Below the pieces are notes generated by a model that was given only the letters and a program-made list of their open reading frames with translations, was not told the origin of the DNA and searched no databases. Made by a program: the position numbers and the translations under genes. 64,000 nucleotides of DNA from a virus. Where the stretch lies: positions 126,392 to 190,391 of the IMG/VR virus record IMGVR_UViG_3300036715_001865, one strand, 5' to 3'. Below, piece after piece: positions 1,376 through 63,070 of the stretch; positions within the stretch are counted from its first letter, which is position 1; every line of letters starts with the position of its first letter.

Positions 1376-2407
1376 TTATGTTCCTTTTTCACAATATAAA
1401 TTTATTACTACCTTGGCTAAATTACCCGAAACAGTATTCTGCATAATGGTACGTAATGTGTATAATAATCCATGCTTTCGAATAGAATCATTAACATCTT
1501 TGCAATCGTCACTTTTATCTAATGTACTTATACTCCACCCCAAGTCAATTGCTTGTTCAGCTAAAATATGCCCTGACCCATACCTATCCGGTATTACTAC
1601 TTTAGGTCTTCGAGATTTGTTTAACCACGTGATTTGGGATTTTGTTAATTTGTTGCCAAAAATTGCGACTCCTGATAATGCAGATGCATCAAACCAACCT
1701 TCTACAACATATAATGGATCCGTGTTGTACCCTTGTATTTGATCATACCCATACATTACATTATCCCTAGCTACTGATGCACTCAAATATTTCTTTTGGT
1801 GCAAATCTGTTAAATCCCTACCTTGATAGAATATTAATTTGTTGTCTTTATATATTGGAATGATTAGTCGTCCGTACCATCTGGCATTAAGAACATGCTG
1901 TTGGTGCTTTACACAATGAAATGGATAAGTTTTCCAATCGATCCCTCTGTTGGCTAAGTATTCAATAGAATACTGACACCAATCATCATCGGGATCATCC
2001 ACTAATGGATAAAAGAAAGGTAGTAACGGGATTTCATCCGGCTCAATAGATTGATAAACAGATACAGCTTTAGAATATTCACCTGTAAGGGCGTCGAGAG
2101 TTAGTTTCCCCCAATCCACCTTAAGGATACCAAATGATTCAAATACTTCCACCATATTTTTTGATGGATTTTTATTTTCAGTTGGCTCATATACTGCAAC
2201 ATGTCCACAATTAAAACAATTATATGTTCCACCATGTTCTGTAAACACAAATGCAGCTCGTTTACCTTTTTTACCATGGTCATTGCATACCTTACACAAT
2301 ACAGGATACCATCCCTTAGCACTTGGAGGGTCTAAGTGTATATGTTGAGTGATTATTTGTTCAAATAGATTATTAGAAGAATCAACTGTTGACGGCTTCC
2401 TATCCAT
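1376..2407 (-). CDS. dnaG: DNA primase (T4 gp61/DnaG-like)
   Basis: N-terminal Zn ribbon (CKVC...CFNCGH), GRLIIPI, YQGR, TOPRIM YVVEGWFDA. Confidence 0.9.
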   Translation of the reverse strand: MDRKPSTVDSSNNLFEQIITQHIHLDPPSAKGWYPVLCKVCNDHGKKGKRAAFVFTEHGGTYNCFNCGHVAVYEPTENKNPSKNMVEVFESFGILKVDWGKLTLDALTGEYSKAVSVYQSIEPDEIPLLPFFYPLVDDPDDDWCQYSIEYLANRGIDWKTYPFHCVKHQQHVLNARWYGRLIIPIYKDNKLIFYQGRDLTDLHQKKYLSASVARDNVMYGYDQIQGYNTDPLYVVEGWFDASALSGVAIFGNKLTKSQITWLNKSRRPKVVIPDRYGSGHILAEQAIDLGWSISTLDKSDDCKDVNDSIRKHGLLYTLRTIMQNTVSGNLAKVVINLYCEKGT

Positions 2408-2472: not shown

Positions 2473-3426
2473 CTATTCTGATGAATTGTTCTCTATATAA
2501 TCCATTAGTTTTGTGTATATCAACCGTTGATATCTTTTCCACTGTTGAAGTTTGTATTTTTGGAATTTTGGATTGTCAGTTGGAGCTAGTAACACCGATT
2601 TCATTTTATCAAACCGTTGAACTATGCCAAAACTTTTGTTAAGACCTAACGTGCCTTTGGTGCTAATATTATTCAATACCTGTTTAATAATATCTGTTGG
2701 ATGGCCTCTATCCTCTGCCCACCAAATTAAACCAGATACAATATTTTGCGAATGTGCTTCAATCTCCACTTGCTGACTTAAGTATTTTTCCTGATCACCA
2801 CTCCCCCCTGCTGACTTTATAAGGTGCTTATCTGTTGAGGTGAGGGTGTGTTGGTTGTTGCTGCGTTGGGACTGTATTATGTGGGTTAGTTCATGCTCCA
2901 CTGTTCCAACCCAATTAGGTACTAATAAAGCCGCTCGGTTTACCTGGTGAATCAACTTAAATGGATAGTATAGGTCAATTAATGCAACATTCATGTATGG
3001 ACCAGTTTTTTTAGTAACCTCCTCAGATGAACCAACAAAAATTCTACGAAATCCTGTTGCAGTGCCGTGGTGAGCCATTTTTTCCACAATATGAACCCCT
3101 ACTCTTATTGAGGTGCCTTGATAGTTATCTTTATCATACTTGACCCGTGTTGCTACTGGTTGATTTGTTTTTATGTTGTCAGGTGTACCATAAAATGGTG
3201 TTTTAATTTGAGAATTTAAAAGGTTATTGATAACAGGGGTTAACATTTTTTTTAACTTGTCCTCCAGTACCTTAACCATATCCACTGTGTTTAGATTAAG
3301 GTCTTCACTGGTTAAGTCCACAAACTTAAGCCAATCATTAAATATCTTGGTTAGTTGTTTATTCGCAGTGGGCGGCAATGCTATTTTTTCCACTAATAAT
3401 TTTTGAGTTGACATAAAAATATCCAT
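2473..3426 (-). CDS. Hypothetical protein with HExxH metallopeptidase-like motif
   Basis: VEHELTHIIQ plus downstream YLSQQVEIEAH; ATAAATA upstream. Confidence 0.65.
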   Translation of the reverse strand: MDIFMSTQKLLVEKIALPPTANKQLTKIFNDWLKFVDLTSEDLNLNTVDMVKVLEDKLKKMLTPVINNLLNSQIKTPFYGTPDNIKTNQPVATRVKYDKDNYQGTSIRVGVHIVEKMAHHGTATGFRRIFVGSSEEVTKKTGPYMNVALIDLYYPFKLIHQVNRAALLVPNWVGTVEHELTHIIQSQRSNNQHTLTSTDKHLIKSAGGSGDQEKYLSQQVEIEAHSQNIVSGLIWWAEDRGHPTDIIKQVLNNISTKGTLGLNKSFGIVQRFDKMKSVLLAPTDNPKFQKYKLQQWKRYQRLIYTKLMDYIENNSSE

Positions 3427-3454: not shown

Positions 3455-3478
3455 ACAAAAAACCACCCGAAGGTGGTT
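3455..3478 (-). terminator. Intrinsic terminator downstream of the tmRNA
   Basis: AACCACC-TTCG-GGTGGTT followed by a T-tract on the minus strand. Confidence 0.85.
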
Positions 3479-3480
3479 TA

Positions 3481-3750
3481 TGTGAAGGTGTTTCTGTTTC
3501 CAAGTGTACCTCCAATACTCATACCTACTTAGTTGCCTAAGCGGCTAGTGCATAATTTTCTGAATTTGCAGTTATATTTTTTATGCCATTAGATATTACT
3601 ATCCAGAAGGTCATCTCTCTAGTTGCCGATCAAACTTATTCTACCCCAATCGATACCATGACATCCCCATAATTAGTTATTTGTGGAGATGGTGGGAGTC
3701 GAACCCACGTCTTGAAGCCTTTAATTTGATAGGAATTACAACCATTCAAC
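3481..3750 (-). ncRNA. ssrA: tmRNA, circularly permuted (two-piece) gene
   Basis: Acceptor piece ~3750-3684 (T arm GTGGG-TTCGACT-CCCAC, CATCTCC-A) precedes the coding piece, which starts GGGGATG at 3668. G3-U70 pair. Tag reading frame 3569-3537 = ANSENYALAA*. P2-type pairings between the pieces. Confidence 0.93.
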
Positions 3751-3755
3751 TTTTG

Positions 3756-3763
3756 TATTTATA
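3756..3763 (-). promoter_or_regulatory. T4-like late promoter driving the tmRNA precursor
   Basis: TATAAATA ~6 nt upstream of the predicted 5' end of the acceptor piece. Confidence 0.7.
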
Positions 3764-4112
3764 CTATTCGAGTTTTATGTGCCTTAATATACTCATTTGT
3801 GAAATACTTTACTCTACCATCTACCATTTCACACAAGGTAGTAGGATGTATTCCCGAACCTACTGCAATAGTAAATTGAATATCAACCAATTGCTCATCG
3901 ATATCATCAGTGGGCCGAACATAATCCATACCGGATACAAATATCCTATAAGCTTCAGTGGCTAAATTATATGCCAATTGATCTATAGCAATTTTTGTTT
4001 GGTTGGCATCAATAGCTTGAATGGTACCATCTTTGATAATTTCTGTACACAATTCTTCCCAAGATTGTAACTCTTGATTGCTAATTTTAGTTGGTGTAGA
4101 TGTATTGTTCAT
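3759..4112 (-). CDS. Hypothetical protein
   Basis: 117-aa ORF, coupled to the upstream gene. Confidence 0.7.
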   Translation of the reverse strand: MNNTSTPTKISNQELQSWEELCTEIIKDGTIQAIDANQTKIAIDQLAYNLATEAYRIFVSGMDYVRPTDDIDEQLVDIQFTIAVGSGIHPTTLCEMVDGRVKYFTNEYIKAHKTRIV

Positions 4113-4618
4113 TTATGTCCTTTTGTTGAGGCCCAATCCAAATCCAAGTCTTCTTGATACTCTTTTGCAATGTGAATTACAGGAAGTGTATCTAAAATAC
4201 TTGGTAGTTTATCAATATCCATATCCCCAATATTATATGATAGGGTAATATGTGGGGTAAAATCAGGAAAGTCAAATGTAGCATCATGTTTTTTCATTAG
4301 ATATTCATGTCGTTCTTTCAATTCTGGACAATCATATTTTATAACCAAACAATTGCTACTACTTCCATCTTCACTGGTTGACTTCCATACATCAAAAGTT
4401 GTTGGAGTTCCAGTAAACATTGGATCTATATTACCCAATGCTTCATATTCAGGTAAAAACTTTCTACTATATAACAACGTAGAATGCATATCTTTTGGCA
4501 ATAATCCATTGGGAATATCATTATCTTTAATGTACTTCAATACTGCTGTGGTTGTGGGTGTATCAAACTTTACACCTGCATACGTTCCTTTATTCGTTTG
4601 TAGTTCCGTTAATAACAT
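4109..4618 (-). CDS. acb1: Anti-CBASS nuclease Acb1-like 2H phosphodiesterase (T4 57B family)
   Basis: Two HxT motifs (MHSTLLYSR, TPHITLSYNIG), HDATFDFPDF and C-terminal EYQEDLDLDWA match the T4 Acb1 layout from memory. Confidence 0.85.
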   Translation of the reverse strand: MLLTELQTNKGTYAGVKFDTPTTTAVLKYIKDNDIPNGLLPKDMHSTLLYSRKFLPEYEALGNIDPMFTGTPTTFDVWKSTSEDGSSSNCLVIKYDCPELKERHEYLMKKHDATFDFPDFTPHITLSYNIGDMDIDKLPSILDTLPVIHIAKEYQEDLDLDWASTKGHK

Positions 4619-7942: not shown

Positions 7943-8025
7943 ATTTTTCTCCGTTATTCAATAATAATGATATTATATACGAATTTTAGTATTTGTCAAC
8001 TTAACGGGAATCTAAATTATACAGC

Positions 8026-9096: not shown

Positions 9097-9849
9097 TTAT
9101 GTTAAATATTGTTCGATATAGTCCCGATCTTGTGTAAAAATCGGGATATTACGTTCTATTCCTTTTGTTTGTCGATCGCCACCTAGCCGCGTGGTATAGC
9201 AACTTCCTCTTTTTTTCCAGGTATGTAGATTGTTCCAATTTACACATTTTTCCAACATCAACATATCTTGCACCTGGCTTGTGTTTTTCTTATGCAATTG
9301 GTTATGACTGAAGTGGTGTTGTCCCAACATGTTTATTGAATTTCTTGTTGCATCCTGTTGTCTCCATACAAAATAATTGGCCACTTCAGACATGGGTACG
9401 TTAAATACTCTACTGTCAAATAATGCAAAATTTGCTGGAGTATATGGGATGTCTGGGAACAATTGTCCAATGTGGAAATTGAAATTAGCAGTTGCGATTG
9501 CTGCTGATACTGATACAGTTTTCTGAATATTGCCACCGTACCAAGGGTCTGTTGTTAGTTTATCCCAATCACACAACAATATTGAAATTTCATCTGATTG
9601 TGTATACCCAAATTTAGCATTTTGAATTTGTGAACCTAATGCTTCCATAGTGAGACACATCGCTGTATGTAATTTTTCACTAAATGGATCATTGATCATA
9701 CTAGGATCATTTTCTTTGTTGATTTTTCTGGTATATGTATGGAACGCTTTACCATCTAACCTAATAATGGTAGCAGATCTACCTAAAAGAGAAGACTGAG
9801 TGGTCTTCTCATATTTCTTCATTCTGTCGCCCAATGTGTCCTTTGACAT
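9097..9849 (-). CDS. thg1: tRNA(His) guanylyltransferase Thg1-like (3'-5' polymerase)
   Basis: RMKKYE, IRLDGKAFH, YTQSDEIS, FDSRVF, YFVWRQQDATRNS. Confidence 0.93.
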   Translation of the reverse strand: MSKDTLGDRMKKYEKTTQSSLLGRSATIIRLDGKAFHTYTRKINKENDPSMINDPFSEKLHTAMCLTMEALGSQIQNAKFGYTQSDEISILLCDWDKLTTDPWYGGNIQKTVSVSAAIATANFNFHIGQLFPDIPYTPANFALFDSRVFNVPMSEVANYFVWRQQDATRNSINMLGQHHFSHNQLHKKNTSQVQDMLMLEKCVNWNNLHTWKKRGSCYTTRLGGDRQTKGIERNIPIFTQDRDYIEQYLT

Positions 9850-40792: not shown

Positions 40793-40865
40793 GGCGATTG
40801 TGTTGTAACGGTTAGCATCCAATACTGTGAATATTGAGGATAGGGTTCAACCCCCTGCTTTCGCC
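40793..40865 (+). tRNA. tRNA-His(GTG) with genomically encoded G-1:C73
   Basis: Anticodon arm CAATA-CTGTGAA-TATTG; two T-T mismatches in the acceptor stem. Confidence 0.85.
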
Positions 40866-44325: not shown

Positions 44326-44329
44326 TATT

Positions 44330-44416
44330 GGGGTTGCTGAGCGCTGGAGAGCTCAACTGACTGTAAATCAGCCGCATCCAAATAAGCCTGTGTAGGTTCG
44401 AGTCCTACCAGCCCCA
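44330..44416 (+). tRNA. tRNA-Tyr(GTA)
   Basis: Anticodon loop CTGTAAA; long variable arm. Confidence 0.88.
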
Positions 44417-54610: not shown

Positions 54611-55384
54611 ATGGCACATAAAACAAAATTGCATGAGATTCTTGCAGTAGAATCAGGTAAAGAAGGTTACTTCAAATCAGCATTGGTTGAAATGACCAAT
54701 TTATTCAAAAACAAAGCAAACCATTTTAATGGATTCAATAAAAATTTGACTCTATTTGGTGATGAAACTCCAGAAAAAATTGCAAAAGAAAAAGCGGCTG
54801 CTGAATCACAGGCATTAACTGCAACTGTGGAATCTGAACTTGCTTATTTGGCTGAAGTGGTTTCTTCTTATGTTGACGTTTTCTATCAAAAAGATGATGC
54901 CAATCAACGTGCTGTTGCAGACATCATTGTAAATGGTGTAGTTATTGCAACTGGCATCCCAGCAACAACTTTGTTGGGCCTGGAAAACAAATTGAAACAG
55001 TTGCGTCCGATTTATGATCAGATTCCAACGTTACAACCAGGAACAAACTGGGAATTGAATCCAGCGCTGGGTAAAGGTGTTTATATTGATAGAGACCAAC
55101 AAGTTCGAACCACCACCAGAAAAGGTTTTGCATTTAAAGAAATTTCGCCTGCTACTGAGAAGTTTCCAGCTCAGATCGAGCGTTGGGAAACAGTAGATGA
55201 CATCGGGTATACTACTTTGACTCGTTGGACTGGTATGATTTCAGTTGCAGAAAAAGTTGATTTGTTAAAACGTTTTGATGCAGTAATGCACGCGGTTAAA
55301 CAAGCTCGTCAACGTGCAAATGAAGTTGAAGTTCACAATGTCAATTTGGGTAAAGTATTAATGGAAGCCATTAACGGCTTCTAA
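54611..55384 (+). CDS. Uncharacterised 257-aa protein (KLHEILAVE N-terminus)
   Basis: Largely helical; SD GAGG. Confidence 0.8.
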   Translation: MAHKTKLHEILAVESGKEGYFKSALVEMTNLFKNKANHFNGFNKNLTLFGDETPEKIAKEKAAAESQALTATVESELAYLAEVVSSYVDVFYQKDDANQRAVADIIVNGVVIATGIPATTLLGLENKLKQLRPIYDQIPTLQPGTNWELNPALGKGVYIDRDQQVRTTTRKGFAFKEISPATEKFPAQIERWETVDDIGYTTLTRWTGMISVAEKVDLLKRFDAVMHAVKQARQRANEVEVHNVNLGKVLMEAINGF

Positions 55385-55389
55385 CAAGT

Positions 55390-55712
55390 TTGAGATAAGT
55401 TTATCGTCAATATTATCGTTAAAGTTATAGATTGATAATCTGGTAGAAATACCAACTGGAGGTTCGATTCCTCCCTGGCCCACGAAGAAACAAATATGGG
55501 TCGGTGCCGGAATGTGGTATACGGGGATTGTTCAATTGTTTTATCGTATTGTCTCAACAAGTTTATTAGATGGATAATAGTAGTAAGCAACACAAGAATA
55601 ATTTTGAATGCTATGGGTTCGAGTCCCATTCTGTGCACTAACCAAACAAAGCTATAATTATGCACCGGTAGGTCAATGGTAGACCGTCAAATTTTTATCT
55701 TCCCTTATTGTG
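55390..55712 (+). ncRNA. Two tandem tRNA-like modules circularly permuted at the anticodon loop
   Basis: Each module reads: anticodon-stem 3' strand, variable region, T arm, acceptor 3' strand, linker, acceptor 5' strand, D arm, anticodon-stem 5' strand. Confidence 0.8.
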
Positions 55713-55762
55713 TAAGACTGAAAGTATTAACGCCCATCAAATCCAATTATAGGATAATTATT

Positions 55763-61636: not shown

Positions 61637-63070
61637 ATGTTCGAACCAACAAGTTTTAAACACACAATCAACGACTATAACCTGCTATTGGATACTGATT
61701 CATATAAAGCTGGGCATTGGTTACAATATCCACCAAATACCACACAAGTGTTCTCCTATATTGAGAGCAGAGGTGGTAAGTATGATGAAACTGTTTTCTT
61801 TGGTCTTCAGTATTACTTAATGGAATTTTTATCCAGACCAATCACCCAAGAAAATATTGATGAAGCAAAGGCATTGTGGCCTGTTCATGGTGAACCCTTC
61901 AACGAAGAAGGTTGGCAATATATTTTGGATACCTATGATGGCTTCTTACCAATTGTTGTTAATGCAATTCCTGAAGGAACTGTTGTCCCAACTGGTAATT
62001 ATTTGTGTTCAATTACGAATACTGATCCAAAGTGTTATTGGTTACCATCTCATTTGGAAACTGGTTTATTACGAGCAGTTTGGTACGGTACCACCGTTGC
62101 AACACAAAGCTATACAATCAAACAAATTATCAAAAAGTACTTAACAGCAACTGCTACAAAAGATGTATTGGACTCATTAGAGTTTAGGTTACATGACTTT
62201 GGTGCTCGTGGTGTTAGTTCTTATGAAAGTTCTGGTTTGGGTAGTATGGCCCATTTGGTTAATTTCAAAGGAACAGATACCATTCAAGGTGTTAGACAAG
62301 CAAGAAAGTATTACGGTGAACATATTGCTGGTTTCTCAGTTCCTGCATCTGAACATTCTTCCATGACTACATGGGGAAGAGATGGTGAAGTTAAAGCGTA
62401 CGAAAATATGATTGACCAATTTGGTAAACCAAATCAAGTTGTATCCATTGTTGTAGATTCATATGACACAATGAATGCTATTAAAAACCTACTTGGTAAA
62501 CAATTAAAATACAAGATTGAAGAATCAGGTATGAATTTAGTTGTTCGACCTGATAGTGGTGTGCCAGAAGACATTGTTCTTGAAGTTGTTGAATTAATGG
62601 CTGAAGCATTTGGTTATACCACCAACAACAAAGGCTATAAAGTATTAGGTGCTGGCACAAGAGTTCTACAAGGTGATGGTATTGACCAATATTCAATTGT
62701 TGAAATTCTTGAAAATCTGATGCAACATGGTTGGTCTGCTGAAAATGTATTTTTTGGTATGGGTGGTGCATTGTTGCAAGGTGTTAATCGTGATACGTTG
62801 AAATTTGCAATGAAAGCATCTGCTGCTTGTATTGATGGTGAATGGGTTGATGTGTACAAAGACCCAATTACAGATTCTGGCAAACGATCTAAAAAAGGTG
62901 TGATTGATTTGTACAGACGAAAAGACACTAAAGTGTATGTTACAGGTCGAGTATCTGACACAACAGATATGAAATTGATGGAAAGTGTATCTCGTCCAGT
63001 GTTCAAAAACGGTTTATTGTTAATCGAAGACGATTTAACTTCAATCAGAAAAAGAACTACCAAAAAGTAG
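61637..63070 (+). CDS. nadV: Nicotinamide phosphoribosyltransferase
   Basis: DTDSYKAGH, FFGLQY, LHDFGARG, SVPASEHS, VDSYD, VRPDSG, QGDG, FGMGG, NRDT. Confidence 0.93.
   Translation: MFEPTSFKHTINDYNLLLDTDSYKAGHWLQYPPNTTQVFSYIESRGGKYDETVFFGLQYYLMEFLSRPITQENIDEAKALWPVHGEPFNEEGWQYILDTYDGFLPIVVNAIPEGTVVPTGNYLCSITNTDPKCYWLPSHLETGLLRAVWYGTTVATQSYTIKQIIKKYLTATATKDVLDSLEFRLHDFGARGVSSYESSGLGSMAHLVNFKGTDTIQGVRQARKYYGEHIAGFSVPASEHSSMTTWGRDGEVKAYENMIDQFGKPNQVVSIVVDSYDTMNAIKNLLGKQLKYKIEESGMNLVVRPDSGVPEDIVLEVVELMAEAFGYTTNNKGYKVLGAGTRVLQGDGIDQYSIVEILENLMQHGWSAENVFFGMGGALLQGVNRDTLKFAMKASAACIDGEWVDVYKDPITDSGKRSKKGVIDLYRRKDTKVYVTGRVSDTTDMKLMESVSRPVFKNGLLLIEDDLTSIRKRTTKK

Follow-up and report, generated by a model that had tools for sequence, protein, structure and literature searches.

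Two-piece tmRNAs have been described from many phages. In a 2022 paper 53 of 133 unique phage tmRNA structures were two-piece; the permuted entries of its Table S1 include XacN1, DLP_6, Mendera, Moby, IME-SM1 and PHB04, and the two-piece set also includes Melnitz, Caulobacter phages and cyanophages (PMC9004378). The two-piece tmRNA of Marzo is annotated in GenBank (PMC8928761), and 79 phage tmRNAs have been curated (PMC11915505). The kind of gene described here is already known, including from the closest cultured relatives of the phage, and our gene is one more example of it. The earlier note on this DNA had seen novelty in the gene, which by its own account catalogued homologs would remove; such homologs are catalogued (PMC9004378, Table S1), and the claim of novelty falls.

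The window, a stretch of 64,000 nucleotides, lies within a 190-kb viral contig, ~54% complete, in which the structural genes are T4-like and at least 17 tRNAs are encoded. The ligase and primase most resemble those of the jumbo phages Phosso, XacN1, CM1/RAS14, Xoo-sp13, RsoM2USA and Atu_ph07 (27–42% identity), and the top sequencing-run matches are microbial-mat and sediment metagenomes. The RdgB-like and PurN-like genes were also considered as indicators of the host, but their 38–45% matches to gammaproteobacteria came from a biased plasmid set and were not usable. Window positions 3763-3455 (minus strand) hold an intact circularly permuted tmRNA gene, in which the acceptor piece (T arm and acceptor 3' strand) precedes the coding piece, with an intervening segment between them (Table 1). 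Three public sequencing runs contain this gene with 0 differences over its length, one of them maybe the source sample. No RNA run was on record as containing the gene in our search of public sequencing runs; one run guessed to be RNA (X5) contains no more than parts of the upstream ORFs and is uninformative on the tmRNA.

Table 1. Features of the tmRNA locus and its conserved neighbors (window coordinates).
Feature	Position	Strand	Basis or remark
Credible T4-type late promoter, TATAAATA	3756..3763	-	Overlaps stop codon of upstream 117-aa ORF
Acceptor piece, ~67 nt plus CCA	3684..3750	-	Rfam, covariation; 5' end inferred from promoter spacing
P2 3' strands	3743-3738, 3730-3723, 3719-3712	-	
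T arm	3708-3692	-	
Acceptor 3' strand, CATCTCC	3691-3685	-	
Discriminator A	3684	-	
Intervening segment, 15 nt	3669..3683	-	Empty (no cargo gene)
Coding piece, ~190 nt to trailer, ~214 nt with terminator	3480..3668	-	Rfam, ARAGORN; in order: acceptor 5' strand, D loop, P2 5' strands, compact structured region, resume site, tag, hairpins
Acceptor 5' strand, GGGGATG	3668-3662	-	
P2 5' strands	3649-3643, 3636-3629, 3626-3622	-	
Tag reading frame ANSENYALAA*, resume codon GCA	3537..3569	-	ARAGORN, Rfam alignment
3' trailer hairpin, loop conserved in two-piece tmRNAs	3483..3514	-	
Intrinsic terminator, UUCG loop 3479-3460 plus T run	3455..3479	-	
Acb1-family (anti-CBASS) 2H phosphoesterase, conserved upstream neighbor	4109..4618	-	PF23474 E 4e-33, synteny
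DNA primase, conserved downstream neighbor	1376..2407	-	
Sigma70-type promoter, 12/12, heading the ligase-DHFR-Acb1 operon	7972..7999	-	Consensus match only

The earlier note had called a phage-encoded, permuted two-piece tmRNA here, and the elements that it listed all lie on the minus strand where it placed them. ARAGORN reports a permuted tmRNA* at c[3446,3773] with the tag ANSENYALAA*, the same tag as in the Rfam alignment. Rfam RF04321 (tmRNA_permuted) matches over the whole model at 115.6 bits (E 1.4e-22, cut-off 47), as does RF01850 (beta_tmRNA) at 95.2 bits (E 2.6e-28, cut-off 84). The alanine G3:U70 pair that had been predicted is present together with the discriminator A73. The D loop has no stem, and the coding piece carries the resume consensus followed by an open tag frame with a hydrophobic AA degron and then a stop. 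CCA is not encoded, the sequence after the acceptor stem being A-CAA, and the intervening segment is at the short end of the homolog range (7–411 nt).

In an alignment with nine homologs, 93.8% of cells pair in the acceptor, T, P2c and P2a helices, compared with 47–54% in slid controls. Changes on both sides were seen in 9 of 24 pairs and 0/500 shuffles reached the covariation score, which bears out the proposed P2 pairing between the two pieces. The minimum free energy fold of the whole precursor taken alone was not significant (z -1.44), and the P2 duplex alone was borderline, with 81/1000 shuffles equally good. The tmRNA call thus rests on models and covariation, not on folding energy.

From its sequence characters, the gene is a beta-type two-piece tmRNA. 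Beta is its best-scoring clade model and the sole one above cut-off; the gene falls below the cut-off in RF01849 (alpha, 44.4 bits vs 50), in the cyano model (45.1 bits vs 70) and in one-piece RF00023 (23.2 bits vs 47). It has both strands of the P2a motif and the 3' trailer loop of Rhodocyclaceae-type genes (59–63/63); the bacterial set had been retrieved with a pattern that included the 3' strand of P2a but neither its 5' strand nor the loop, and the loop occurs in 59/63 Rhodocyclaceae-type and 0/23 one-piece genes. The T loop is canonical, whereas none of the 23 alpha genes has a canonical one. Computed after setting all genes in canonical order, mean identity of the window gene was 0.60 to Rhodocyclaceae-type genes, 0.58 to viral permuted genes, 0.52 to one-piece gammaproteobacterial genes and 0.44 to alpha genes. 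Searching with the acceptor-piece pattern gave 67 bacterial genomes, all proteobacterial, of which the family-titled ones were Rhodocyclales or beta; the tags of these bacterial genes are ANDERFALAA-like.

Compared with the beta-type permuted tmRNA of Rhodocyclaceae and related Betaproteobacteria (RF01850/RF04321), the window gene has the same gene order, opening point and P2a pair and the same compact mRNA domain and 3' loop, and it passes both cut-offs over the whole model. It differs in being only ~60% identical to the bacterial genes, in its tag (ANSENYALAA against ANDERFALAA or ANDERFAIAA), in its 15-nt spacer against a median of 32, in lacking an encoded CCA and in having a phage late promoter, not a sigma70 one. 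With one-piece gammaproteobacterial tmRNA (RF00023, ~23 bits) it shares the tRNA-like domain, the resume consensus and a YALAA-ending tag, and differs in gene order, P2 sequence and the long multi-pseudoknot domain.

The earlier note had read the locus as an independent circular permutation, in which a one-piece gammaproteobacterial ssrA would have been rearranged within the phage lineage, and had noted that an ANDENYALAA-type tag is typical of one-piece gammaproteobacterial tmRNA. The tag does end in YALAA, as in 16/23 one-piece gammaproteobacterial genes and 0/63 Rhodocyclaceae-type genes, and the host-like phage genes match gammaproteobacteria best, if weakly. YALAA-ending tags were, however, found in six other permuted phage genes, including that of XacN1, so the tag is uninformative on origin; such endings in phages may reflect fit to host proteases. 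The GCATG/CATGTAG P2 pair, seen in 20/23 and 23/23 one-piece gammaproteobacterial genes, is absent from the window gene, as is their long pseudoknot domain, and it has instead the P2a strands, 3' loop, opening site and compact mRNA domain of beta-type genes, with beta alone of the clade models passing its cut-off.

The phylogeny that the earlier note had proposed as a check answers in part. In a maximum-likelihood tree (97 rows, 190 columns) the window gene falls in a beta-type clade (97/92) whose 56 rows come from phages and bacteria, with viral rows nearest to it. The alpha (100/100) and one-piece gammaproteobacterial (95/95) genes stand apart, and a starred branch separates the window gene from the latter. 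AU tests, which have low power on 190 columns, reject neither a grouping with the one-piece gammaproteobacterial genes (p 0.17–0.19) nor one with alpha (p 0.31), so the tree is supporting and not decisive. Given the beta-type motifs, the identities, the tree and the failure of the tag argument, we regard an independent permutation as very improbable.

Pattern searches and synteny were used to collect relatives of the gene. Two IMG/VR pattern scans gave 66 contigs, from which, together with the syntenic relatives, 42 distinct permuted genes were obtained. Tight patterns made from the window gene itself found nothing further, with 0 other viral contigs for the D loop/P2 and 0 bacterial genomes for the acceptor, so that the collections searched contain no close homolog. 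The three syntenic relatives (L003/4/5/8, L068/9, L070), found through the neighboring Acb1 gene or in the IMG/VR pattern scans, all have a permuted tmRNA between Acb1 and primase, these two proteins being 42–56% identical to those of the window. Their tmRNAs form no clade with the window gene, suggesting that alleles were swapped or that resolution is poor. The tmRNA of one of them (L068:4322-4659) has an unusual acceptor stem with a GTGGGTG start, and the tags of six viral copies (L033, L037, L056, L061, L066, L070) are long and basic and end in LAV, FAV or LAL, not LAA, possibly as altered degrons.

Permuted tmRNAs were also found in the cultured relatives RsoM2USA (beta, 92 bits), XacN1 (beta, 107.8), Xoo-sp13 and Phosso (alpha, 108), and in nine more cultured phages (Marzo, DLP_6, PA_L9, JGB6, BUCT628, QDWS595, QDWS359, PHB04 and BUDD), six of which exceed the beta cut-off. 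The window gene is of the same kind as these phage two-piece tmRNAs, which occur in lytic phages beside or among tRNA and translation-support genes. The Melnitz gene, reported to be alpha-like, early-promoter driven and riboswitch-linked, differs from the window gene with its late promoter. Spacers are long in XacN1 (117 nt), Xoo-sp13 (150 nt; L145) and Phosso (~410 nt), in contrast to the minimal spacer of the window gene.

Several observations were made on these cultured phages. The permuted tmRNAs of XacN1, Xoo-sp13 and RsoM2USA are unannotated in their GenBank records. XacN1 (L143:1501-1800 and 2840-3253) has a GOLLD RNA (227 bits) ~1 kb downstream of its permuted tmRNA, and two amber suppressor tRNAs lie upstream at the XacN1/Xoo-sp13 locus. 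For the beta-type gene of Ralstonia phage RsoM2USA (L001:3934-4245) ARAGORN picked the wrong tag frame, the tag read by eye being ANDSRYAVAA. The alpha-type gene of Sinorhizobium phage Phosso (L144, 349596-350198, minus strand) was missed by ARAGORN; its spacer holds long inverted repeats, one of which resembles an acceptor stem.

Could the gene be a passenger that does nothing for the phage, either a captured host ssrA or a piece of an attachment site? Integration at ssrA is common (PMC11915505), and the relatives RAS14 and Atu_ph07 have no tmRNA above cut-off. The window gene is, however, complete, its likeness to any bacterial gene found does not exceed 62%, and no tyrosine integrase was found on the contig (~54% complete). 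Its own phage-type promoter and terminator, and a position kept while its neighbors diverged to ~50% protein identity, make a remnant most unlikely. We put at roughly 0.8 the probability that this is a functional beta-type two-piece tmRNA, long kept between Acb1 and primase in a family of T4-like jumbo myophages.

Other features of the surroundings were recorded. A 317-aa ORF with a HELTH metalloprotease-like motif (2473-3426, minus strand) comes right after the tmRNA terminator and has no Pfam or PHROG match; the syntenic relatives have a different conserved ORF at its position. Genes for Thg1 tRNA-His guanylyltransferase (9097-9849, minus strand) and NAMPT (61637-63070, plus strand) are present in the window, and with Acb1 they surround the locus with counter-defence and translation or NAD support. 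Two tRNA-like Rfam matches on the plus strand (40794-40865 and 44329-44416; 38.6 and 40.6 bits) were missed by ARAGORN. Two tandem tRNA-like modules (55430-55720, plus strand) follow an ORF at 54611-55384, a DUF7873 gene (PF25283), and run in the order T arm, acceptor 3' strand, loop, acceptor 5' strand, D arm; the second has a weak YrlA match (33.9 bits vs cut-off 69, E 6e-4), and no TROVE/Ro60 gene turned up on the contig (~54% complete).

The octamer TATAAATA occurs at 41 sites in the contig, 30 of them 10–50 nt before the start of a same-strand ORF and these mostly in the structural region; among control octamers, of the same composition and not overlapping the motif, 0–16% of sites lay before ORFs. 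A sigma-like (gp55-like) gene (G000:69411-69995) lies beside gp46/gp47-like genes, and T4 gp55 likewise adjoins gp46/gp47. The motif thus behaves as a late promoter of the phage, and its copy at the tmRNA is a credible late promoter. This copy is 13 nt before the first P2 strand, which fits a late start near 3750 and so pieces of ~70 and 190–214 nt, in keeping with the ~70 and ~190 nt that had been predicted. TAAATA stands at the same place in two syntenic relatives, whereas sigma70-like elements take its place in L068 and in several other viral copies. Late expression, as first proposed, agrees with the behavior of the motif, but the stronger form, late only, goes further than the sequence does: with the 12/12 sigma70 consensus upstream and no terminator called between 7999-7972 and 3479, the first one being that after the tmRNA, earlier read-through into the gene is possible.

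The following scheme draws on general knowledge of tmRNA processing and ribosome rescue. A single precursor would be transcribed from the phage late promoter, from ~3750 to 3455, and possibly also at an earlier stage, if transcription of the ligase operon reads through into the gene. Cleavage by host RNase P would fall at G3668, and 3' trimming after A3684 would allow the host CCA-adding enzyme to complete the acceptor piece, the spacer being lost. The two pieces, held together by the acceptor stem and P2 pairing, would be charged by host AlaRS (G3:U70, A73); aided by SmpB and EF-Tu of the host, they would rescue ribosomes stalled on broken, non-stop mRNA, adding (A)ANSENYALAA and so directing the product to ClpXP-type degradation. 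Host factors are presumed, as searches of the phage's own contig (~54% complete) turned up no gene for SmpB, a CCA-adding enzyme or ClpP. We infer that the purpose would be to keep ribosomes in circulation during the late stage of infection, after host transcription has been shut off and while non-stop mRNAs are plentiful; the RNA would supplement or back up a host tmRNA that is maybe depleted or cut, as the at least 17 phage tRNAs back up the tRNA pool. The processing and rescue steps are taken from established tmRNA biology (PMC11915505, PMC9004378).

The RNA could also act against the host system, as a decoy that titrates host SmpB or as a redirector whose tag spares phage proteins; redirection of trans-translation had been raised in the earlier note. 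E. coli SspB reads the part of the tag where Asp is usual, and the window tag has Ser there. A precedent exists in the tag-less tmRNA-like RNA of mycobacteriophage DS6A, a host tmRNA inhibitor (PMC4131195; PMC11915505), with which the window gene shares a phage-encoded tmRNA-like domain and dependence on host SmpB. The coding part is wholly missing from the DS6A RNA, however, whereas the window gene keeps its resume site, full tag frame and C-terminal LAA degron intact, and homologous phage tags mostly end in AA. We consider a decoy or redirector improbable, redirection in particular because the LAA degron is kept. The window gene is most likely a working ribosome-rescue RNA matured by host enzymes, as judged from its intact elements and known tmRNA biology.

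Beyond this locus, the beta-type two-piece tmRNA might be mainly a phage lineage, with the 'third lineage' of Rhodocyclaceae arising where a phage copy replaced the host ssrA. The form is found in lytic phages of hosts that have one-piece tmRNA (Xanthomonas, Stenotrophomonas, Pseudomonas, Acinetobacter, Ralstonia and Alcaligenes). On this view, being compact and split might protect the RNA from host RNases that attack tmRNA. Phage copies are far more diverse (mean identity ~0.6 against 0.85 for bacterial ones), and the Rhodocyclaceae clade (97/90) is placed among phage rows. In bacteria the form is rare (4/151 genomes of the order and 2/151 of the class, one of these tallies including the unpublished genome G146, which contributed no sequence), and Pseudomonadota have 594 instances of it against 153,942 standard ones. 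Against this, the nesting branches are not starred and the first to branch off is a divergent bacterial copy (L216), the bacterial set came from a narrow pattern and phage RNAs may evolve faster, and phage monophyly was not rejected by an AU test (p 0.20). We hold such a phage origin to be rather unlikely. If it were true, the window would be one of hundreds of examples and not a discovery.

As a single locus the gene matters little, but it is a tidy example, with a minimal spacer, its own late promoter and terminator, and a conserved position. In the literature searched there is apparently no test of the function of intact phage tmRNAs; XacN1, Xoo-sp13 and RsoM2USA carry the same gene type, so that function is testable there. 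Beta-type two-piece genes in phages of one-piece hosts form a wider pattern that is worth one systematic study.
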